DNA of 64,000 nt from Bacteroidota bacterium (GTDB lineage: Bacteria; Bacteroidota; Bacteroidia; AKYH767-A; OLB10), in the NCBI GenBank assembly GCA_024643795.1, contig JAHEMF010000006.1, positions 22,112-86,111 on the forward strand. The letters run 5' to 3'. The position numbers and the translations under genes are program-made. This document shows positions 5,390 to 22,008 of the stretch, one piece after another; the first letter of the stretch is position 1; the number at the start of each line of letters is the position of its first letter. The notes under the pieces are model-generated. The model made no database searches and had not been told where the DNA came from. It worked only from the letters and a program-made list of their open reading frames with translations.

Positions 5390-5836
5390 TTAAGGGATCA
5401 CCAGTTGATTTTCGGAATAAAAATCTTCGCCATTCATACTGTATTCAACCTTCACATTGTAAAGCCCGCTTTTGAATTGACCTGCATCAATTTTCTGAAC
5501 ACCGGATGAATCACTTGCAACTGAAAATTCTTTATCTAGTTCGCTGTCTGAGGGTCTGAAAAAAGTGATGGTTCCTTCAAGGTTGTTGATCGATGGTTTG
5601 TTGGGGTACTCAAATATCACCGTCTGATCCTTTAACTCAATTTTAACGGCTCCATTGTTCTCAGTGGTTCTGTTCATCTTGTCAATGTGGTCCTGGTACT
5701 TCAATTCCTGAGCATAGTAATCATCAGCCACCAGATCTACTTTCTGCTTCATGCTGCCAATAACAAGGATAGCTATAAGGCCCATAAAGCCTGCGTAAAG
5801 TATGATGATCCTGTAGCCCCAATTCATTTTATTCAA
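5390..5836 (-). CDS. ccoH: FixH/CcoH family cbb3 oxidase assembly protein
   Basis: An N-terminal TM anchor followed by a periplasmic domain. Located downstream of ccoG with a 8-nt overlap. Confidence 0.65.
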   Translation of the reverse strand: MNKMNWGYRIIILYAGFMGLIAILVIGSMKQKVDLVADDYYAQELKYQDHIDKMNRTTENNGAVKIELKDQTVIFEYPNKPSINNLEGTITFFRPSDSELDKEFSVASDSSGVQKIDAGQFKSGLYNVKVEYSMNGEDFYSENQLVIP

Positions 5837-7253
5837 ATGCTTTTTTATCTCCTTTGTAAACAGGACCCATAAAGTTGGTATTCACAGTCTCTATTTTCTC
5901 TTCACCTGAATAAACCCCGATCTTGATTTTAGTCTTCCTATCCTGAATAAGTTTGGCATCCAATTTAATAAAAAATTCTCCTTCGGTGATTCCCTCTTTA
6001 GCTGCTTGTATGTTTTCGGTACCAATCAAAACAATGGTGCCTTCTTTCGATTCCAGTTTAAATTGCACCGGAAATGCTTTGGTGGTTTTGTTCACTATCT
6101 TGTAGTTGTACAGGTTGCTGATGGTGCTGTCAGGTTGCTTTTGGTATAACATACCGGGGGTTCTGAGGATGGTGGTCTCCGTGTCAGACCGGAATGCAAG
6201 TCCGAATGATAATCCGGTGAGTAACACTACTAACAAAACAGAGTACCCCATTATACGGGGTGTGAAACGAAGAGGTTTGCTTTTTGCAATCCCATCTTCT
6301 GATGCATAGCGGATCAATCCTTTAGGTAATCCTACCCCATCCATCATATGGTTACACACATCAATACATGCTGTGCAATTTACACACTCCAGCTGAGTAC
6401 CATTTCTGATGTCAATTCCGGTAGGACAAACTTTCACGCACTGATGGCAGTCTATACAGTCTCCGGCCCTTCGTTCTTCATTCTTGTGAAAATGCTGGCG
6501 GGGTTCACCACGAACATAATCATACGCCACTACTATGGAATTCTTGTCTAACAGTACACCTTGTAATCTGCCATACGGACAAACAACCAGACAAACCTGC
6601 TCTCTGAAATGACCAAAAACTCCATAAAAAACTCCTGAAAAAATAATAATTGCCATAAATCCACCCATGTGCATGGCAACAGGTTCAGTGGCTATTTTCT
6701 CAAGCATATCAATGCCGATTATGTAGGCCAGAAAAGTATTGGCTATGATAAAGGAGATGATGTAAAATATAATGTGCTTGCTTCCTTTCTTTATCAATTT
6801 GTCTGTGGTCCACGGAGCCTTTGCCAGTGCTTTTTGTTTACTGGCGTCGCCTTCAATAAAGTATTCGATCTTCCTGAATACCATCTCCATGAAAATGGTC
6901 TGCGGGCAGGTCCATCCACACCAAAGCCTTCCAAATACAGAAGTGAACAAAACAATGAACACAACAAAAGTTAACATGGTAAGTCCAAACAGGAAGAAAT
7001 CCTGCGGCCAGAACACCAGTCCGAAAATGATGAATTTTCGCTCAATAACATTCAATAACAACAAAGGATTGCCATTCACTTCTATGAATGGAATGCCGAA
7101 TAAAAGAACCAGGCAAATAATGCTTACCCACGTCCGTGCATTGTAAAGAGGTCCTTTGGGTTTTTGAGGAAAGATCCAGACCCTCTTACCTTTTTTATCT
7201 ATGGTAGATACAGAATCTCTGAACGATTCAGAGTTAGCTTGATTTGAATCCAT
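5829..7253 (-). CDS. ccoG: Cytochrome c oxidase accessory protein CcoG/FixG (polyferredoxin)
   Basis: Has the CGWTCPQT, CVVCPYG, CIDCHQCVKVCP and CVNCTACIDVC cysteine clusters plus TM helices. Confidence 0.9.
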   Translation of the reverse strand: MDSNQANSESFRDSVSTIDKKGKRVWIFPQKPKGPLYNARTWVSIICLVLLFGIPFIEVNGNPLLLLNVIERKFIIFGLVFWPQDFFLFGLTMLTFVVFIVLFTSVFGRLWCGWTCPQTIFMEMVFRKIEYFIEGDASKQKALAKAPWTTDKLIKKGSKHIIFYIISFIIANTFLAYIIGIDMLEKIATEPVAMHMGGFMAIIIFSGVFYGVFGHFREQVCLVVCPYGRLQGVLLDKNSIVVAYDYVRGEPRQHFHKNEERRAGDCIDCHQCVKVCPTGIDIRNGTQLECVNCTACIDVCNHMMDGVGLPKGLIRYASEDGIAKSKPLRFTPRIMGYSVLLVVLLTGLSFGLAFRSDTETTILRTPGMLYQKQPDSTISNLYNYKIVNKTTKAFPVQFKLESKEGTIVLIGTENIQAAKEGITEGEFFIKLDAKLIQDRKTKIKIGVYSGEEKIETVNTNFMGPVYKGDKKAFE

Positions 7254-7324: not shown

Positions 7325-8344
7325 TTACTCTGATACTGTTTCGGCAGATGGCTCAGCAGATGCAGTTACTGTTGAATCTGCAGGTGCTGTTTCCTGATTC
7401 TCCTGGTAAAGGTCGCCTTGAGGTTCTTTCGGATTAGGTGGATTGGTGCCATGCAGCGTCTTTATGTAACTTGCCACCTCCTGTATTTCTGTCGGCTTAA
7501 GCTGTGTCTGCCATGATATCATTCCCTTTTGAGGTACACCATATTTAATCACTTTAAAAACATCATTGATACTTCCACCATGGATCCAGTAATCATCCGT
7601 CATATTCGGACCTACTCCACCTTCACCCAGTTTGCCATGGCAAACCACACACTTCTCGTCATATATTTTTTTGCCTGAGGCAAGTTCAGCTTCAGCTGTA
7701 GCAAGTGTTACCGTGTTCTCATCTACCTGTGCAGCGGCTGACTTTAAGCGTTCGGCTTTCGCCTGTTCAGCATCGGCCAGCTGCTCTTCATATTCTGCTA
7801 TTTGTAATTTTCCAGACCCTATTACATGATAGTTTAATAAATAAAGCACCGCAAAAACTATGGTCAGATAAAACCCATAGATCCACCAGGGTGGTAAACT
7901 GTTATCTAGTTCTTTAATACCATCATAATCGTGGTCGAGCATGATGTCAGCTTCTTTCTCAATAGGCACTGCATCGGTGAGCTTTCTGTCAAGCCTCTGC
8001 CACCATGGTAATCGCTCTTTACCTGGTTCTTCTGATGTAACAGGCTTCACAACTTTTTTAGGTTTACCTGCTTCACTGTTCACCAGCCCTCTTATAACTT
8101 TTGCCATTACCGCAATGGTCACAAGAAGTATCAGAATAGTAAAGATTATCAGGTAATTGAGCGGATTGAAAAAATTGGCTGATGGTCCTGCCTGTGCTTC
8201 CTGAGCAAATGCACCCGTTGTTACCAACACTCCTGAGACCAGCAGTGCAGTCATATATAGTTTTTTAGAATTGCTGTTAGTTAAGCGTGCCATATGTTCC
8301 ACTGTTTGCTGTTTAGTTTTTAGTTTCAATTGTATCATCCTCAA
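7325..8344 (-). CDS. ccoP: cbb3-type cytochrome c oxidase subunit III-like (CcoP), monoheme. The true start may be the internal Met at 8293 (MARLTN…), which would remove the overlap with ccoQ.
   Basis: Has the MLDHDYDGIKELDNSLPPWW CcoP N-terminal domain and a single CVVCHG haem-c site. Confidence 0.75.
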   Translation of the reverse strand: MRMIQLKLKTKQQTVEHMARLTNSNSKKLYMTALLVSGVLVTTGAFAQEAQAGPSANFFNPLNYLIIFTILILLVTIAVMAKVIRGLVNSEAGKPKKVVKPVTSEEPGKERLPWWQRLDRKLTDAVPIEKEADIMLDHDYDGIKELDNSLPPWWIYGFYLTIVFAVLYLLNYHVIGSGKLQIAEYEEQLADAEQAKAERLKSAAAQVDENTVTLATAEAELASGKKIYDEKCVVCHGKLGEGGVGPNMTDDYWIHGGSINDVFKVIKYGVPQKGMISWQTQLKPTEIQEVASYIKTLHGTNPPNPKEPQGDLYQENQETAPADSTVTASAEPSAETVSE

Positions 8345-8495
8345 GAGGGAGGTTGTTCATGTGGTTCAAATAACTTTTATCCATAAAAGCCACCACAAAC
8401 CCCAGCCCTACAAAAAATGTAAAGAAGATCATGAGTGATATCATCGGAAAAATTCCGATCCCTGATATCGAATCCAGATAATTTATAAATTTCAT
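8313..8495 (-). CDS. ccoQ: CcoQ/FixQ-like small membrane subunit
   Basis: A 60 aa single-TM protein lying between ccoNO and ccoP. Confidence 0.5.
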   Translation of the reverse strand: MKFINYLDSISGIGIFPMISLMIFFTFFVGLGFVVAFMDKSYLNHMNNLPLEDDTIETKN

Positions 8496-8500
8496 AAGGT

Positions 8501-10627
8501 TTAGTTTGATGCGGTTTTAACGTTTGCTTTTATATCTGTTCCTAATCGCTGTAAATAGGCAATGAGTGCAACTATTTCACGGTCGCTCATCACTTCAATA
8601 CCATCGCCGGCAAGGTTAGCGGCTATCTTTTCAGCCTGAGCTTTAAGATCATCCACCGCCTTTTGGTCATAACCCTCAGGATACGGAACACCTAAGGTTT
8701 GCATAGCTCGTATCTTGCCCGGAGTATTACTTATATCAAGTGCATCATCAATGAGCCATGGGTAAGCAGGCATAATAGATCCCGGCGACATGGTGGTTGG
8801 GTCTTCCATATGATTGAAGTGCCATGAGTCAGGATATTTTCCTCCAACCCGGTGAAGATCCGGACCGGTACGTTTTGAACCCCACTGGAACGGGTGGTCA
8901 TATACAAATTCTCCGGCCTTTGAATATTCTCCATACCTCTCAGTCTCACTTCTGAAAGGACGTATCATCTGTGAATGACAGGTATAACAACCTTCTCTCA
9001 CATATATATCGCGACCTTCTAGCTCTAACGGAGTATAAGGCTTTACACTTGATATGGTTGGGATATTTGATTTGATAAGGAATGTGGGAACCAGCTCCAC
9101 AACACCTCCGATAAGGATCACGATCAGGCTTCCAACCAACATCTGTACAGGACGACGTTCCAATTTCCTGTGCCACCCTTCACCGGGGTTATGTATTGCA
9201 ACCGGCATAGCAGGTGCTTCAGCAGCCTCGTCAGCAACAAGTTGTCCTGATTTTACAGTCTTTATAAGGTTGTAAACCATCACAATAACACCTGTCAGAT
9301 ACAAGACGCCTCCCAGCACACGTAATTTATACATTGGCAGGATCTGGGTCACAGTCTCCAAAAAGTTAGGGTAACGCAGGAATCCGTCTTCGGTGAATTC
9401 TTTCCACATCAAACTCTGGGTAAAACCGGCCCAATACATAGGAATTGCATAGAATAATATTCCCAGTGTACCTATCCAGAAATGGAAACTGGCAAGCTTT
9501 TGTGAGTGAAGCTGAGTGTTGAATATTCTTGGTAACAGCCAGTATAGCATACCAAAAGTCAGGAACCCATTCCATCCCAGAGCACCAACGTGAACGTGTG
9601 CAATGGTCCAGTCGGTAAAGTGACTGATAGCATTTACATTTTTCAACGAAAGCATCGGACCTTCAAATGTGGCCATACCGTATGCTGTTACGGCAACCAC
9701 CAGAAACTTCAAAACAATACTATCACGCACCCGATCCCACGCACCGCGTAAGGTCAGTAGTCCGTTTATCATACCTCCCCATGATGGAGCTATAAGCATT
9801 ATAGAAAATACAACACCTAAACTCTGTGCCCAGTCGGGCAGTGAAGTATATAACAGATGGTGTGGTCCTGCCCATATATAAATAAATATAAGTGCCCAGA
9901 AGTGAATGATAGAAAGGCGGTACGAATACACTGGCCTGTTAGCAGCTTTAGGAACAAAGTAATACATAAGTCCCAGGTAAGGCGTTGTAAGAAAGAAAGC
10001 AACGGCATTATGTCCGTACCACCACTGCACCAACGCATCCTGCACCCCGGCATATACCGGATAGCTCTTGAATAAAGAAACCGGAAGTTCAACAGAGTTC
10101 ACAATGTGCAGTACCGCCACGGTAACAAACGTTGCAATGTAGAACCAAATGGCAACATACAGGTGCTTCTCGCGGCGACGTAAAATGGTGCCGAACATGT
10201 TTATACCAAAAACAACCCATATCAGCGCAACCGCTATATCAATAGGCCACTCCAGTTCAGCATATTCTTTACTGGTGGTTATACCAAGCGGAAGCGTCAC
10301 TGCTGCTGCAACTATTATCAGCTGCCATCCCCAAAAGTTTATACTGCTCAGTGTGTCACTGAACATCCTTGCTTTACAAAGTCGCTGTAACGAATAATAT
10401 AATCCGGTAAAAATGCCGTTACCTACAAAGGCAAATATCACCGCATTGGTATGCAATGGCCTTATTCGTCCAAAGCTAGTGTAGGCAAGATCAAGGTTGA
10501 ACACCGGCCATACAAGCTGAAGTGCCGCCAAAAGTCCAACCGTCATTCCCACTACTCCCCAAAGGATCGTAGCATAGGCAAAATTTTTAACGATCTTGTT
10601 GTCATAATAAAACTTTTCCAGTTCCAT
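8501..10627 (-). CDS. ccoNO: cbb3-type cytochrome c oxidase, fused subunits I+II (CcoNO)
   Basis: A 12-TM haem-copper oxidase core with His ligands, followed by a CcoO domain with CYTCHSQ. The 708 aa fused form is typical of Bacteroidota. Confidence 0.9.
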   Translation of the reverse strand: MELEKFYYDNKIVKNFAYATILWGVVGMTVGLLAALQLVWPVFNLDLAYTSFGRIRPLHTNAVIFAFVGNGIFTGLYYSLQRLCKARMFSDTLSSINFWGWQLIIVAAAVTLPLGITTSKEYAELEWPIDIAVALIWVVFGINMFGTILRRREKHLYVAIWFYIATFVTVAVLHIVNSVELPVSLFKSYPVYAGVQDALVQWWYGHNAVAFFLTTPYLGLMYYFVPKAANRPVYSYRLSIIHFWALIFIYIWAGPHHLLYTSLPDWAQSLGVVFSIMLIAPSWGGMINGLLTLRGAWDRVRDSIVLKFLVVAVTAYGMATFEGPMLSLKNVNAISHFTDWTIAHVHVGALGWNGFLTFGMLYWLLPRIFNTQLHSQKLASFHFWIGTLGILFYAIPMYWAGFTQSLMWKEFTEDGFLRYPNFLETVTQILPMYKLRVLGGVLYLTGVIVMVYNLIKTVKSGQLVADEAAEAPAMPVAIHNPGEGWHRKLERRPVQMLVGSLIVILIGGVVELVPTFLIKSNIPTISSVKPYTPLELEGRDIYVREGCYTCHSQMIRPFRSETERYGEYSKAGEFVYDHPFQWGSKRTGPDLHRVGGKYPDSWHFNHMEDPTTMSPGSIMPAYPWLIDDALDISNTPGKIRAMQTLGVPYPEGYDQKAVDDLKAQAEKIAANLAGDGIEVMSDREIVALIAYLQRLGTDIKANVKTASN

Positions 10628-10633
10628 AGGTTC

Positions 10634-10798
10634 TTATTGATTGTTATCGTTTTTGGATTTATTATCGTCGAAAAGCATGCGCACCGAAGGGGTATACTCA
10701 TCCTCGTACTGGCCTCGTTTCACCGACCAGATAAAGGCTACCAGGAAAAAACAGGCAACTAACAAACTGATTATCACCAGAAGAAAGAGTGCGCTCAT
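10634..10798 (-). CDS. ccoS: cbb3 oxidase maturation protein CcoS (54 aa; not in the supplied ORF track)
   Basis: My own translation of the minus strand gives MSALFLLVIISLLVACFFLVAFIWSVKRGQYEDEYTPSVRMLFDDNKSKNDNNQ*. This is a single TM followed by the …SGQFDD…P…R-like tail characteristic of CcoS. It ends 7 nt upstream of the ccoNO start. Confidence 0.75.
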   Translation of the reverse strand: MSALFLLVIISLLVACFFLVAFIWSVKRGQYEDEYTPSVRMLFDDNKSKNDNNQ

Positions 10799-10815
10799 AG
10801 CTGAATTAAAGGTAC

Positions 10816-10840
10816 CAAATTTACCCGCACTACCAAATGG
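10816..10840 (-). promoter_or_regulatory. Candidate Bacteroidota sigma-A promoter for ccoS-ccoNO
   Basis: The minus strand reads TAAATTTG (a TAnnTTTG -7 element) about 22 nt upstream of the ccoS ATG. A TTTG (-33-like) lies about 19 nt further upstream. Confidence 0.3.
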
Positions 10841-10860
10841 GGCGTATGATAAGCATCACA

Positions 10861-11030
10861 CCAATAACTGACTTTTGTCAGGCTCCGGTATTTGGGCGTT
10901 CCCCCGCCTTCCGCCACACGGATAGGCAGCTGCAGGTTAAGAGGGTCCTATCCGCCGAAATCCTTACGACGAAGGCGGGGTCGGGCTATCGTGCGCCGGA
11001 GGCTGCACTCTATCCCTAACGCGGGGCAGA
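10861..11030. other. GC-rich (about 60%) highly structured element between ccoI and ccoS; candidate small RNA or cis-regulatory element
   Basis: There is a perfect 10-bp inverted repeat CCCCGCCTTC…GAAGGCGGGG. It encloses a 7-bp stem GGATAGG…CCTATCC with a CAGCTGCAG core. A further stem GTGC…GCAC lies downstream. GC content contrasts sharply with the AT-rich flanks. No ORF is present. Confidence 0.3.
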
Positions 11031-11070
11031 GATCAGATATCAGAAATCAGATATCGGATATCAGAAATAG
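11031..11070. repeat. Short tandem repeat (AGATATCAGAAATC / AGATATCGGATATCAGAAATAG)
   Basis: Direct repeats of GATATCAGAAAT are visible in the sequence. Confidence 0.5.
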
Positions 11071-11164
11071 TCCAGGCATAACATTTACCTATTATTCACT
11101 GAATACCCTCCAGAACTTCGTTTATTAAATAATTGAATAATTAAATAATCAGATGTATCAATTT

Positions 11165-11202
11165 GCACTAACACATTAGCACATTATTTAATTAGCACAT
11201 TA
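11165..11202. repeat. Three imperfect direct copies of (T)TAGCACATTA immediately 3' of ccoI
   Basis: gcactaacacatta / ttagcacatta / ttagcacatta, read directly from the sequence. Confidence 0.45.
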
Positions 11203-11208
11203 GAAAAT

Positions 11209-13620
11209 TCATTTTTTAAAAACAACCTTCCCCATCAGTGCGCTCCCTGCCGTTGCAAGTGTAATAATAGTGATGGTACTCAAAGGCATGATAATGGCAG
11301 CAACAAGTGGCGAAAGCATCCCTTGCACGGCAAACCACAACCCTGCAACATTGTATAATAGTGAGATCAAGTAGCTGAAGTAAACAACACCCATTGAAGC
11401 CTTGCTGTATCGCATAAGCTGAGGTATTAATTTAAAGGCCTGTGCATCCATGATGATATCACTGGCCGGCGAAAAGTTGTTCGTGTCGTCCGATATGGCA
11501 ATGCCGGTATCACTTTGCTTCAATGCACCGGCATCATTCAGCCCGTCACCGATCATCAGTACCTGCTTGCCCCCCTTTTGAAGCTCCTTTACACGATCAA
11601 GCTTATCGGCAGGAGACTGGTTGTAACGTTGGTCATTGAACAATGTAGCGAAAGTGGTTCGTTCCGCGTCATGATCTCCTGACAACAACTCGGTTGAATA
11701 ATGCTGTGATAAACTACCCGTCACTTCTTTCAATCCTTCGCGATATGCTGACTCGATTTCGAAATACCCTTTTGGTTCATCATCAAAAGTTATGCAAACT
11801 ACTGAATGATTTTTTTCTGAATTTGAAATGTTCATTCCTGTAAATGCAGGAGAACCAATTTTAACTTTTACTCCTTCAGTTACTGCTTCAACTCCTTGTC
11901 CGGCTGTTTCCCTGAAATCTGATAAGGTTATCCTGGGTACGGTGCCAAACTGTTGCGAAATGATCTTGCTCAACGGGTGCAATGAAGCAGCAGTCAAATT
12001 TGCAACATAAACTTTTTCTGCGCCACTAAGGTCCTTTCCGTTGTATACACATAGTTTTGATCTGCCACGGGTGAGTGTTCCAGTTTTATCAAAAATAATG
12101 TGGGTTATTCTGGAAAGCTGTTCTATTACCACGGTGTTCTTGAGATAGAATTTCTTTTTGCCAAGTATCCGCATCGCATTACCAAGTGTAAAAGGGTAGG
12201 AGAGCGACAAGGCACAGGGGCAGGTGATAATGAGTACTGCAGTGAACACCTGAAATGCCATGCGCGATGATCCGTTGAAATAATGATAGATGAAAGCTGT
12301 GAAGGCTATCAGCAATACCACAGTTGTAAAATATTTACTGAGTGTGTTTACTACAGTAGAAACATGTTTGTTATCAGGTTCAGAATAGTTGTGCTCATTC
12401 CATAATTGTGTTAAACGGCTTTGTGATACTTTTTTCAAAACCTCCAGTTCTATGGGAGAACCGGTTTGCTTTCCTCCTGCGAATATCTTATCACCTGTAA
12501 CTTTTTCCACCGGGTTGTTTTCTCCCGTCACAAAACTGTAGTCAATACTTCCTTTTCCATTGGTAATAACACTATCAACCGGTATAAGCTCTTCATTATG
12601 TATCACTATCCTGTCGCCGGGCTTGAGTTCACTCACCGGACAGGTGGTTTCTTTTTCCTGCGTTATTATGGTAACTGCCACCGGAAAGTACGACCGGTAG
12701 TCGCGGTCAAATGAAAGTCGCTGATACGTTTTGTCCTGAAATACCCTTCCCGTAAGCATAAAAAATACCAGTCCCGCAAAAGTGTCCATATAACCCGGCC
12801 CCGTTCCACTGATTATCTCATAAAGACTTTGTGAATACATTACAATTATTCCCAGTGAGATGGGTACATCCATATTCAGCCCCTTGTGTTTTATTCCATT
12901 CCAGGCTGATCTGAAAAAATCAGTGTCTGCATAAAGCAATACCGGCAATGATAGGATGATACTAAGTATTCCGAAAAGTTCCCTGAATCCATTTTCATCG
13001 GTTATGGTAAGTCCGAAGTATTCCGGAAAGCTCAATAGCATGATGTTGCCAAAACAAAAAAATGCCACACCCATTTTGTAGTATGTGCGTTTATTGGAGG
13101 TTACTTTTTTTGCCGACTCAACACTGTCAAGGTTAATCACAGGTTCGTATCCCAAGCGGGCGAGTATTTCCACTACTTTACGCAAAGTGGTCTTGCCTGT
13201 GCTGAAACTGAGTGATATCTCACGCTTCAAAAAATTGACCCTCGATTGGGTTATGGCAGGGTCTATCCTGTAAAGCTGTTCAAGCAACCAGATGCATGAA
13301 CTGCAATGAATATTAGGAATATATAAGGTGAGGTTTGTAATGTTGTCATCAGTGAAATCGATCAACCGTGAAACAACAGTTTCATTATCGAGGTAAGCGT
13401 ATTTTTCTACATTTAATTTCTTATCACTGCTGGTACCCGGTGCCAGGTTCATAGTGTAGTAATCGCAAAGTCCGTTCTCCTCCAATACCTGATATACAGT
13501 TTTGCATCCTTCGCAACAAAAGATCTTTTCATCAAGAGCGATGGAGATGTTCTTACATGCATCACCACAATGAAAACATGCAATTTTTTTTCGGTTTTCT
13601 GTCTTCAAGCCATCATTCAT
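11209..13620 (-). CDS. ccoI: Copper-translocating P1B-type ATPase (CcoI/FixI-type)
   Basis: Has N-terminal CFHCGDAC and CCEGCK metal-binding motifs, a CPC transmembrane motif (ITCPCALS), the DKTGTLT phosphorylation site and the GDGLNDAGAL hinge. Confidence 0.9.
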   Translation of the reverse strand: MNDGLKTENRKKIACFHCGDACKNISIALDEKIFCCEGCKTVYQVLEENGLCDYYTMNLAPGTSSDKKLNVEKYAYLDNETVVSRLIDFTDDNITNLTLYIPNIHCSSCIWLLEQLYRIDPAITQSRVNFLKREISLSFSTGKTTLRKVVEILARLGYEPVINLDSVESAKKVTSNKRTYYKMGVAFFCFGNIMLLSFPEYFGLTITDENGFRELFGILSIILSLPVLLYADTDFFRSAWNGIKHKGLNMDVPISLGIIVMYSQSLYEIISGTGPGYMDTFAGLVFFMLTGRVFQDKTYQRLSFDRDYRSYFPVAVTIITQEKETTCPVSELKPGDRIVIHNEELIPVDSVITNGKGSIDYSFVTGENNPVEKVTGDKIFAGGKQTGSPIELEVLKKVSQSRLTQLWNEHNYSEPDNKHVSTVVNTLSKYFTTVVLLIAFTAFIYHYFNGSSRMAFQVFTAVLIITCPCALSLSYPFTLGNAMRILGKKKFYLKNTVVIEQLSRITHIIFDKTGTLTRGRSKLCVYNGKDLSGAEKVYVANLTAASLHPLSKIISQQFGTVPRITLSDFRETAGQGVEAVTEGVKVKIGSPAFTGMNISNSEKNHSVVCITFDDEPKGYFEIESAYREGLKEVTGSLSQHYSTELLSGDHDAERTTFATLFNDQRYNQSPADKLDRVKELQKGGKQVLMIGDGLNDAGALKQSDTGIAISDDTNNFSPASDIIMDAQAFKLIPQLMRYSKASMGVVYFSYLISLLYNVAGLWFAVQGMLSPLVAAIIMPLSTITIITLATAGSALMGKVVFKK

Positions 13621-13687: not shown

Positions 13688-15607
13688 TCAGTGATTCGAC
13701 TGATCCAGGGCCACGGCACCACCCGTATACAGTTGTTTGCGGTATTTTTTTGAGGGCGACTCAATAAATGGCCCAAGGCCCAGTTTGTCCCATATCTCAT
13801 CGATCCGTGAAATGGTCTGCTGGTCTGATGCAAGTATGTTAGGCCAGTCTCTCGTGAAGCCGTCGAATTCTTTGTTTTTACGTGTGCCGTCAAATACCAC
13901 ATGGCCTGACTCACCATCTCTGGCAGGTTCAATTATAAAATGATCGCGTTTGGGATCAACGTTATTGGCAAACCGCCATACAGCATCCGCAAGATCACTA
14001 ACATCAAGTGTGTGTTCCAGAAAAATCAAAACCTTCACATCTGAAAAAGATTCCAGTTCAAATAATTTGGGCGCGATCTCCTTAATGTGACCTTTTTTGT
14101 TTTTTTCGATAGATATAAACACTATGGAGATGTTTCTCTGCATCAAAGTGTTATTTATTCCTCTGATCTCAGGGAATTTTTCTATTACTCCGGTAATTTC
14201 TGTTGATGTACCATGTTGTGTGGAAAGCGATGCTCTTCCTGCCAGTTCTTCCGGTAATTTTTTCGTTGCATCAATTCCCAGTTTACCTCCGAATGCCATG
14301 GTAGAACAGGAATGATCCAGCACATCGGTAGGACCCTGAGTGAATACCAGGTCATTCAACGGATCTGTATTCTCTGAAATATATTGTGCCACTTCCAGGT
14401 TATTATGAATATCAACTTCACCATCCACAACTATCATCATTTTGGTGAACATCATCTGACCGGCACCCCACAATGAGTTCATCACCTTGAGTGCCTGTCC
14501 GGGATAATCTTTTTTGATCTTTACAATACACAGGTTATGAAACACTCCTTCAACCGGCAACACCATGTCAACGATCTCCGGTACCATGGTCATCTTTATA
14601 GGTGCTAAGAATATTCGTTCGGTTGCTTTTCCTATCCATGCATCTTCCTGTGGGGGTATGCCTACAATGGTTGCAGGGTAAATGGCATCTTTCCTGTGTG
14701 TGATGGCCGTTATATGAAATTTTGGATAATAATCAGCGAGTGAATAGTACCCGGTATGATCTCCGAAAGGCCCTTCAAGAATGAACTCTTCTTGCGGGTC
14801 AATGTATCCTTCAATAATGATATCCGCATCAGCCGGAACATACATATCCTGTGTTAAACACTTAACCAGCTCAACCCTTTTCTTACGGATAAAACCTGCC
14901 AGCATAAATTCATCAACACCGTCGGGTAATGGTGCCGTTGCTGAATATGCGTATGACGGATCGCCTCCTAATGAAACAACCACGGGCATTCGTTTTCCCA
15001 GCTTTTTATACTCGTTAAAATGACGGGCCGATACTTTGTGCCGGTGCCAGTGCATAGCAGTAAGTTTAGGTCCGAATACCTGCATCCTGTATAATCCAAC
15101 ATTTCGTTGTCCTGTGTTCGGGTCTTTGGTTTGTATTACAGGAAGAGTTAAAAATGGTCCGCCATCTTCGGGCCAGCACTTCAATATCGGAAACCTGGTG
15201 ATGTCCGGATCCTTCATAACTACTTCCTGACAGGCACCTTTCCCTGAAATGGTTTTCGGCATCCAGGAGGCTACTTCACCAAGTTGAGGAAGCAACTTCA
15301 GTTTATCAATAAAAGAATTTTTGGGCGATGTAAAAGTTTGAAATAATTGTTCAATCTGTCCCGCAAGGTCATCCAGTTTCTCTACTCCCAGTGCCATGGC
15401 CATCCTCTTCTCTGTGCCCATGGAATTAATGAGCAATGGAAACTCCTTGCCGGTGTTCTCGAATAGCAGAGCAGGGCCATATTGTTTTGAAATTCTGTCA
15501 GTGATCTCAGTGATCTCCAGTTCAGGATTTACATATTCCTTTATCCTGACAAGTTCTCCTGCCCGTTCAAGTACTTCAATGAAATGATTTTGATCTTTGT
15601 AAGCCAC
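13688..15607 (-). CDS. UbiD-family (prenylated-FMN dependent) decarboxylase
   Basis: Has the EGPFGDHTGYY motif and overall UbiD-like architecture. At 639 aa it is longer than classic UbiD. Confidence 0.75.
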   Translation of the reverse strand: MAYKDQNHFIEVLERAGELVRIKEYVNPELEITEITDRISKQYGPALLFENTGKEFPLLINSMGTEKRMAMALGVEKLDDLAGQIEQLFQTFTSPKNSFIDKLKLLPQLGEVASWMPKTISGKGACQEVVMKDPDITRFPILKCWPEDGGPFLTLPVIQTKDPNTGQRNVGLYRMQVFGPKLTAMHWHRHKVSARHFNEYKKLGKRMPVVVSLGGDPSYAYSATAPLPDGVDEFMLAGFIRKKRVELVKCLTQDMYVPADADIIIEGYIDPQEEFILEGPFGDHTGYYSLADYYPKFHITAITHRKDAIYPATIVGIPPQEDAWIGKATERIFLAPIKMTMVPEIVDMVLPVEGVFHNLCIVKIKKDYPGQALKVMNSLWGAGQMMFTKMMIVVDGEVDIHNNLEVAQYISENTDPLNDLVFTQGPTDVLDHSCSTMAFGGKLGIDATKKLPEELAGRASLSTQHGTSTEITGVIEKFPEIRGINNTLMQRNISIVFISIEKNKKGHIKEIAPKLFELESFSDVKVLIFLEHTLDVSDLADAVWRFANNVDPKRDHFIIEPARDGESGHVVFDGTRKNKEFDGFTRDWPNILASDQQTISRIDEIWDKLGLGPFIESPSKKYRKQLYTGGAVALDQSNH

Positions 15608-21657: not shown

Positions 21658-22008
21658 ATGAAACAGATAATGAATCTTATGCTCGTTGCTTTTATAGCTC
21701 TTTTTTCATTGAAAGCAACTGCACAGTCAACAGAAATAATCATTAAAACCAGTGCTCAGTGTAAAGAGTGCAAGGAAACCCTTGAAGCTAAGGTGATAGA
21801 TTGCAAGGGTGTTAAGTTTGTTGAGCTTGACATGGAATCTAAAAACCTGAAAGTTGTTTACAACTCCAAAAAAACAAATCCTGAGTTGATCAGAAAGTAT
21901 ATTTCTGATATCGGATATAATGCTGATGATGTTGCTGCCAATCCGGAAGCTGTGGAGAAGTTAAGCCCTTGTTGCCGTCCTGATGGTAGCCATTCTCATG
22001 ACGAATGA
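21658..22008 (+). CDS. Periplasmic heavy-metal-associated (HMA) domain protein with an extra CC…HSHDE tail
   Basis: Has a signal peptide, an AQCKEC (xCxxC) motif with a ferredoxin-like fold length, and a C-terminal SPCCRPDGSHSHDE. Confidence 0.7.
   Translation: MKQIMNLMLVAFIALFSLKATAQSTEIIIKTSAQCKECKETLEAKVIDCKGVKFVELDMESKNLKVVYNSKKTNPELIRKYISDIGYNADDVAANPEAVEKLSPCCRPDGSHSHDE

Follow-up and report, generated by a model that had tools for sequence, protein, structure and literature searches.

The 410-nt spacer between ccoI and ccoS, in the cbb3 oxidase genes of a 64-kb stretch of Bacteroidota DNA (contig JAHEMF010000006.1; hereafter the window, meaning the whole 64,000 nt analyzed), contains a GC-rich island with several nested stems. 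This island is probably a diverged copy of a structured repeat, dispersed in Bacteroidota in multiple copies, whose long arm is Flavo-1 (Rfam RF01705); it would have been inserted beside the ccoS promoter. The family is a known one whose function is unknown, and the island is a new, divergent member of it. As argued below, the element appears to have no tie to cbb3 oxidase, and its presence at the cco locus to be lineage-specific. An initial annotation, made from the letters of the sequence, had proposed a structured RNA or protein-binding site involved in oxygen- or copper-responsive control of the oxidase.

The GC content is 60.6% at 10861-11030 and 65.4% at 10894-11026, compared with 31.7% in the rest of the spacer (10799-11208) and 39.4% in the window, and the island is the top 100-nt GC peak of the 64 kb (0.65; window mean 0.39, standard deviation 0.056). 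The description of the island as about 60% GC in an AT-rich region was therefore accurate. Its bounds, put at 10861-11030, were right only in part; the element itself runs from about 10891 to 11026, and the CTGAC...GTCAG palindrome at the left edge (10868-10881) is a promoter box instead, which is also the sole terminator-like call in the region. Likewise, the 410-bp length given for the gap stands, but the gap is not free of open reading frames: mechanical frames of 60 and 78 amino acids overlap the GC island, and a Pfam search of both matched no family.

The minimum free energy fold of the minus strand, which is the sense strand of ccoI and ccoS, consists of a closing helix (P1) and two hairpins (P2 and P3), i.e., a Y-shaped three-way junction (-68.1 kcal/mol, z = -2.24 relative to shuffles). 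For the plus strand the fold is less distinctive (z = -0.72). The stems picked out by the initial annotation are all present. Its perfect 10-bp inverted repeat (CCCCGCCTTC/GAAGGCGGGG, 10/10) and its nested stem (CGGATAGG/CCTATCCG, 8/8, with CAGCTGCAG in the loop) together make up P2, and its GTGC/GCAC hairpin (10991-10994 with 11005-11008) is the remnant of the Flavo-1 arm, P3 (Table 1). Only two of 300 dinucleotide shuffles of the island contained a perfect inverted repeat of at least 10 bp. The reported absence of a T-tract behind the main stem was correct; indeed, none of the stems of the island, on either strand, has behind it the U/T-run that an intrinsic terminator would require. That the element is a multi-stem structure and not a simple terminator is borne out by this fold and by covariation over 46 copies, described below.

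The family was found by scanning metagenomes with the 17-mer CTATCCCTAACGCGGGG (11010-11026, plus strand). The scan gave 47 loci, about 35 of which, on contigs of 29-55% GC, have the complete block order of the window. Their common plus-strand architecture is (T-rich) G-GCGTT - CC..hairpin..GG - TCGGGCTATCCGCT - variable hairpin(s) - TCCGCTNCTATCCC-T-AACGC, or, stated by helices, GGCGTT - P2 hairpin - TCGGGCTATC - P3 - CTATCCCTAACGC with P1 pairing. The window has this order too, matching three separate conserved blocks exactly and with the right helices between them.

The link to Flavo-1 came from the long arm. The Rfam model matches P3 of family copies on the strand opposite to the 17-mer; the score for one copy (L126) is 61.8 bits, against a gathering threshold of 42, and five others (L117, L109, L138, L116, L136) score 25-30 bits, below threshold, at the same coordinates. 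The Flavo-1 alignment of Weinberg et al. 2010 (PMC2864571), in which F. johnsoniae and F. psychrophilum have many copies per genome, has the same termini, GCGUUAGGGAUAG...GAUAGCCCGACC, and includes the GCGUUA/GCGUGA motif. The window minus strand reads GCGUUAGGGAUAG...GAUAGCCCGACC, identical to the Weinberg seeds and to the consensus of the 'GCGUUA' subtype. Moreover, in 5/5 Weinberg sequences examined the flank of Flavo-1 holds a second hairpin followed by the complement of the 5' GCGUKA, such that GCGUGA pairs with UCACGC and GCGUUA with UAACGC. The presence of P2 and of the P1 partner in these flanks means that Rfam Flavo-1 is one arm (P3) of a three-way junction, to which the full unit adds the covarying P1, P2, and a CCAAA tail. 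The P1 closing helix, second arm, and CCAAA tail lie outside the Rfam model and are not described in the Flavo-1 literature searched. The initial annotation had recommended an Rfam scan, a hit in which would make the element known rather than novel. A scan of the window gave no Flavo-1 match at the gathering threshold (42 bits); since the homologues of the window copy are Flavo-1, the known family was reached indirectly.

Two covariance models find the element in the window. Model R1, built from 16 metagenome copies with helices P1, P2, and P3a-c specified by hand, gave a single credible match in the 64 kb, at 10895-11026, with 38.4 bits (E 4.6e-6), a score inflated by a training set chosen with the window's own 17-mer. 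Model R2 was built from viral-contig copies picked by the central motif GGTCGGGCTATCCGCT, of which the window has 12/16 bases; it gave 32.2 bits (E 1.8e-6), again the sole credible match in the 64 kb, with an ascertainment bias that is reduced and not removed, as the R2 alignment was made with R1.

Compensatory change across the family is extensive. In an alignment of 46 copies that had itself been fitted to the model, pairing reaches 93.9% of cells, and 15/18 pairs show changes on both sides; these values were equaled in 0/500 shuffles, and slid partners give 28-48% pairing. P1 is 99.6% paired, and four of its five pairs change on both sides, the variants being GCGTT/AACGC, GCGTG/CACGC, GGCTT/AAGCC, GGCTC/GAGCC, GTGTT/AACAC, GCATT/AATGC, and GCGCA/TGCGC. 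CCA follows P1 on the Flavo-1 strand in 23/44 copies, compared with a background of 0.9%. The fold, kept by compensatory changes, seems to be under selection, and the CCAAA tail looks like that of an acceptor stem or of a REP element. When read on the other strand this tail is a T-rich TTTGG lead, which often merges with the T-run of an upstream terminator (L093-L177).

Within the family the window copy is an outlier. Its P2, at 79 nt, is the longest of the 46 copies (median 13.5 nt), and its P3, at 34 nt, is the shortest (median 60.5 nt), which is why Rfam misses it. The internal loops of Flavo-1 are purine-rich, GAA/GGA and then GGA/GUA on either side of a covarying 2-bp helix, with a distal helix beyond. 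The P3 of the window keeps the Flavo-1 foot GGG-A-UA...UA-G-CCC (that is, GGGAUAG...GAUAGCCC with its A/G mismatch and UA/UA pairs) between the same 5' GCGUUA and 3' GACC, together with a tandem GA loop, the first internal loop being reduced to GA/GA. The 2-bp GC/GC helix of Flavo-1 has become UG/CA, with both pairs changed, within a 4-bp GUGC/GCAC helix; the second internal loop and distal helix are missing, and P2 is the dominant arm. Otherwise the copy resembles Flavo-1 in its occurrence in Bacteroidota, its intergenic location, its GC richness, and the variable length of its distal stems. The interior of P2 (10912-10970), AGGGTC-CTATCCGCCGAAATCCTT, is similar to the junction motif of the family, AGGGTCGGGCTATCCGCTGCAATCTTT, with a local alignment score of 24, a value reached by 0.5% of shuffles. 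This degenerate second junction motif suggests a partial internal duplication, or two nested units.

Direct searches with the island itself had given little. Exact, 3-mismatch, and short-word BLAST searches found no second copy in the 64-kb window, and BLAST against plasmid and phage collections found nothing relevant. The outer-stem pattern CCCCGCCTTC-N-GAAGGCGGGG matched viral contigs at eight sites, all of them unrelated GC-rich sequence. A 55-amino-acid translated reading of the island was found in none of the species-representative genomes and confirmed in none of the metagenome matches listed; the conserved 3' block lay outside the peptides. That the window has one copy, with no relative in the BLAST searches (plasmids, phages) or translated-pattern genome scans, is consistent with a chance GC-rich stretch or a foreign-DNA relic with fortuitous inverted repeats. 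Against this stand the two covariance models at E ~1e-6, the three conserved blocks in order, and the scarcity of 10-bp repeats in the shuffled island (2/300). We find the idea scarcely credible, as it is effectively refuted by the family copies, the models, and the covariation.

The position of the element invites a cbb3-specific explanation, namely a cis-acting RNA of the cco operon that serves as a 3' untranslated region structure of ccoI, as a processing site, or as a riboregulator coupling ccoI to ccoS-ccoNOQP. In favor of such a role, the element sits between ccoI and ccoS with its Flavo-1 orientation in the sense of both, the minus strand folds more distinctively than the plus strand (z = -2.24 versus -0.72), and the spacer yielded no other evident terminator for ccoI. 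Orthologous loci argue otherwise. We compared 80 genome loci together with those of P0003 and P0008, the two nearest among the CcoI proteins looked up (55-56% identical). When ccoS comes after ccoI, a gap of -4 to 170 nt is typical; that of the window, at 410 nt, has about 290 nt extra, and those of the closest relatives (L002, L003) measure 122-124 nt and hold promoter boxes only. R1 made no match in the 61 orthologous cco loci searched (314 kb). In addition, the element occurs in dozens of unrelated contexts, on contigs that look like those of Bacteroidota and of phages, with mixed neighbors and in both orientations, which is unlike a gene-specific cis-regulatory RNA. In the window the ccoS promoter boxes are downstream of it, which places it outside the ccoS leader, and no U-tract follows. 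The initial annotation was right to regard this as probably not simply the ccoS 5' leader; its proposed role in oxygen or copper control fails on the absence from the 61 loci and the unrelated contexts, and we consider a cco-specific RNA improbable. With the nearest CcoI only 57% identical, covariation from true orthologous spacers was impossible. The source organism itself looks deep-branching within Bacteroidota, this 57% being the best non-self CcoI match among billions of proteins; its CcoI homologues and the TAnnTTTG promoter motif support its placement in that phylum.

Other long ccoI-ccoS gaps (L015, L016, L031, L046, L068, L069) contain inserted open reading frames or other repeats and not a Flavo-1-type element. 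Four of them (L016, L031, L046, L068), of 493-1268 nt, accommodate whole extra open reading frames. In Thermobacterium salinum (L069, 3891-4719) the gap is 827 nt and holds an opposite-strand open reading frame flanked by GC-rich palindromes of a different family, e.g., GCCCCCTCTTTGAAGAGGGGGTTGGGGGAGATGTCAAT, so that here too an insertion at this intergenic position is associated with repeats. Across Bacteroidota, insertions recur in the ccoI-ccoS spacer.

What is conserved in these spacers is the promoter region of ccoS. Of 29 Bacteroidota-type loci with a ccoI-ccoS gap, 27 have a TGAY-N4-RTCA box ahead of ccoS; in most loci the proximal box is at -60 to -65 from the ccoS ATG and about 35 nt upstream of TAnnTTTG, and TAnnTTTG is at -23 to -30 in many. 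The window motif is where the initial annotation had placed it (TAAATTTG, minus strand). A second box occurs 22 nt farther upstream in the window and in L001, L003, L017, L035, and L041. In Proteobacteria, FNR/FixK-type boxes, TTGAT-N4-ATCAA, stand upstream of ccoN/fixN. The window boxes TGACAAAAGTCA and TGATGCTTATCA resemble such CRP/FNR-type operators of cbb3 genes in lying at fixed distance upstream of the ccoS-ccoN promoter, a likeness limited to 10847-10880, outside the GC island, with the candidate regulator class taken from the consensus only. Judging from that consensus, the two boxes would be a conserved CRP/FNR-type operator of the ccoS promoter. That the island is itself a double-stranded DNA site for an oxygen- or copper-responsive cbb3 regulator could be argued from its palindromes and from the adjoining ccoS promoter. 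The palindromes that are conserved (27/29 loci), however, are the AT-rich boxes at fixed spacing to the -7 motif and not the island, whose blocks belong to a dispersed family lacking cco association, and we judge this idea very improbable. Any oxygen-responsive protein-binding sites are probably the boxes at 10847-10858 and 10869-10880, outside or at the edge of the island.

The dispersal of the family is evident from several observations. R1 finds further, non-ascertained copies on contigs already holding one, in both orientations. Copies are intergenic, with the GGGCGTT strand in the same sense as the upstream gene in 20 cases and in the opposite sense in 11, and many lie 5-70 nt past a gene end, right behind a hairpin and T-run. 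Viral contigs coded in one direction have the element in sense orientation in about four independent groups and in antisense orientation in about four. In a published F. psychrophilum transcriptome (PMC9723704), Flavo-1 matches were reported as sense, antisense, or outside transcribed regions. In two contigs from different samples (L111, L123) a second motif, GTCATTGCGAGGA, lies 3' of the element, hinting at repeat-family mosaics.

Several points weigh against the dispersed-repeat reading. As to membership, this rests on purpose-built models, with the ascertainment described above, and on shared conserved blocks, and not on Rfam: even at E up to 10, Rfam scans of 10600-11400 and 10975-11035 gave no Flavo-1 and chance matches only. 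(A weak match to sR084, a Yersinia pestis small RNA, over the promoter boxes was dismissed as chance.) Multi-copy status in the source organism is presumptive, the 64-kb window having a single copy. As to mobility, which we infer, no direct repeats indicative of target-site duplication were seen in the flanks of 44 copies, and terminal inverted repeats are limited to the 5-6 bp of P1. Searches at two phage-contig insertion sites gave no empty sites. No mobilizing enzyme was found; the RAYT idea was checked by comparing published REPs, and no search for a neighboring RAYT gene was made. Lastly, some features point to function and not to selfish spread. On six related phage-like IMG/VR contigs (L140, L148, L160, L156, L144, L162) the element has one common site, about 27 nt ahead of a 465-amino-acid gene's start, in Flavo-1 sense and adjoined by further conserved hairpins. 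Between the most diverged two of these contigs, identity is 91% for the element and 44-65% for its flanks; distal-stem and P1 differences are compensatory (TTCGC/GCGAA vs TGCCC/GGGCA; GTGTT/AACAC). Also, the Flavo-1 strand folds slightly better in 26/37 copies (p = 0.014).

These last features are among those expected of an independent functional Flavo-1 non-coding RNA gene on the minus strand, unrelated to cco and possibly tRNA-like, with an acceptor-like P1 plus CCA. Weinberg et al. (PMC2864571) rated Flavo-1 a probable RNA with covariation. The folding preference, the ratio of G-U to A-C cells (16:9, favoring the Flavo-1 strand), the purine-rich internal loops on that strand (GAA/GGA; tandem GA in the window copy), the conserved CCAAA tail after P1, and the compensatory conservation at the phage sites are all consistent with this view. 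Other evidence speaks against it. No conserved promoter or terminator flanks the copies, many of which come right after another gene's terminator with the strand in the opposite sense; copies run both with and against transcription, even in unidirectional viral contigs; the published transcriptome gives no consistent expression (PMC9723704); and true RNAs usually show a much stronger bias than 16:9. Tests of strand gave weak, partly conflicting results. On balance an independent RNA gene strikes us as unlikely.

If the element is a dispersed repeat, as we favor, it can be compared with known classes. Like the REP/BIME elements associated with RAYT proteins (PMC6006769, PMC3733652), it is a dispersed, multi-copy, GC-rich extragenic palindrome found in both orientations; REP copies are likewise often clustered with other repeats, and several REP families have a short unpaired CCA tail. 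It differs in lacking the GTAG or CGTC foot of REP hairpins and in size, a REP being a 20-40-nt hairpin and the Flavo-1-type unit a three-way junction of 75-190 nt. The REPs published for Bacteroidetes RAYT subclass 2.6 (Quentin et al. 2018, PMC6006769), which are short GCTAG/GCTGG hairpins, show no resemblance to the element, and a RAYT-mobilized REP was rejected as the identity of the island on this ground. Incidental roles proposed for REPs include mRNA 3'-end stabilization and termination (PMC6006769, PMC3733652). In size, fold, dispersal, and modularity the Flavo-1-type unit is like BOX, ERIC, and Correia elements, to which it has no sequence relationship. BOX elements of Streptococcus, ERIC/IRU of Enterobacteria, and Correia elements of Neisseria are structured, dispersed, orientation-independent sequences of about 100-150 nt with modular arms, and their function is largely unknown or incidental. 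The element is unlike a miniature inverted-repeat transposable element in that it shows neither long terminal inverted repeats nor target-site duplication; it has an asymmetric conserved tail instead.

The history of the window copy may be pictured as follows. The element lies 10 nt upstream of the distal CRP/FNR-type box, and the otherwise canonical ccoS promoter is conserved and intact beside it. A copy would have been inserted, or expanded, in the ccoI-ccoS spacer in the window lineage. It would then have drifted, with P2 becoming enlarged and partly duplicated and P3 truncated. The unit would act or spread as a single-stranded nucleic-acid structure bound by protein, in the manner of REP, BOX, or ERIC elements, and not as a gene-specific riboregulator. 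Its local effect is expected to be at most incidental: read-through from ccoI would form a stable Y-fold in the ccoI 3' region, and such a fold could stop 3' exonucleases or serve as an insulator between ccoI and the ccoS promoter. Between RNA and single-stranded DNA as the mode of action, we lean slightly toward a REP/BOX-like repeat recognized by its structure. A bolder and more tentative proposal, which we consider possible though not probable, is that Flavo-1 is an arm of a larger Y-shaped functional structured nucleic acid, either an RNA processed at P1/CCA or a single-stranded DNA structure for an HUH-type or other enzyme, the cco copy being a lineage-specific remodeled insertion.

As regards cbb3 regulation, the GC-rich structure is a tempting wrong lead, and the candidate control sites are the two CRP/FNR-type boxes. 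As regards the family, divergent Flavo-1-type repeats escape Rfam because its model covers a single arm; modeling the whole three-way junction would be expected to reveal more copies, in Bacteroidota far beyond Flavobacteria and in their phages. For this abundant family, whose function has been unknown for 15 years, the covarying P1, the CCAAA tail, and in-situ compensatory evolution offer handles for distinguishing an RNA from a mobile single-stranded DNA.

Table 1. Positions of the repeat element, promoter features, and genes in the window.
Feature	Position	Strand	Basis or remark
Whole Y-shaped (three-way-junction) element, Flavo-1-family copy	10891-11026	minus (Rfam Flavo-1 orientation, sense of ccoI/ccoS)	R1, R2, and minimum free energy fold; CCAAA tail extends to 10891
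CCAAA tail after P1	10895-10891	minus	conserved in family
P1 closing helix, one strand	10896-10900	minus	GCGTT plus / AACGC minus; pairs with 11018-11022
P2, unusually long hairpin	10901-10980	minus	outer stem 10902-10911/10971-10980, inner stem 10919-10926/10947-10954, CAGCTGCAG in loop
P3, truncated counterpart of the Rfam Flavo-1 hairpin	10983-11016	minus	GGGAUAG-A-GUGC AGCCUCCGGC GCAC-GAUAGCCC
P1 partner strand	11018-11022	minus	AACGC plus / GCGUU minus, inside the Flavo-1 5' motif GCGUUAGGGAUAG
Bacteroidota-type -7 motif TAAATTTG for ccoS-ccoNOQP	10816-10823	minus	read from sequence
Proximal palindromic box TGATGCTTATCA	10847-10858	read on minus	starts 60 nt upstream of ccoS ATG, 35 nt upstream of -7 motif
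Distal palindromic box TGACAAAAGTCA	10869-10880		TGAY-N4-RTCA, outside the repeat element
Tandem heptamer CAGATAT, about 5.6 copies (also readable as 2 copies of a 21-mer)	11027-11068		Tandem Repeats Finder; abuts the island element
ccoG	5829-7253	minus	Pfam FixG
ccoP	7325-8344	minus	Pfam FixP
ccoQ-like	8313-8495	minus	small open reading frame
ccoNO	8501-10627	minus	Pfam COX1 + FixO
ccoS	10634-10798	minus	Pfam FixS, 77 bits
ccoI	11209-13620	minus	P-type (E1-E2) ATPase with PF12156; homologues
UbiD-like	13688-15607	minus	Pfam UbiD

The remainder of the spacer has repeats of its own. The segment right after the ccoI stop (11124-11208) is about 26-28% GC and is absent from relatives. Within it, an AT-only inverted repeat matches perfectly over 12 bp (11138-11149 with 11183-11194), and four copies of a repeat with an 8-nt period, CACATTAG (TAATGTGCTAAT on the minus strand), occupy 11172-11203. 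The CAGATAT array has a 95% match elsewhere in the window, in a 19-nt stretch at 21900-21918, and short tandem repeats adjoin other family copies as well (L099, L116, L127, L108).

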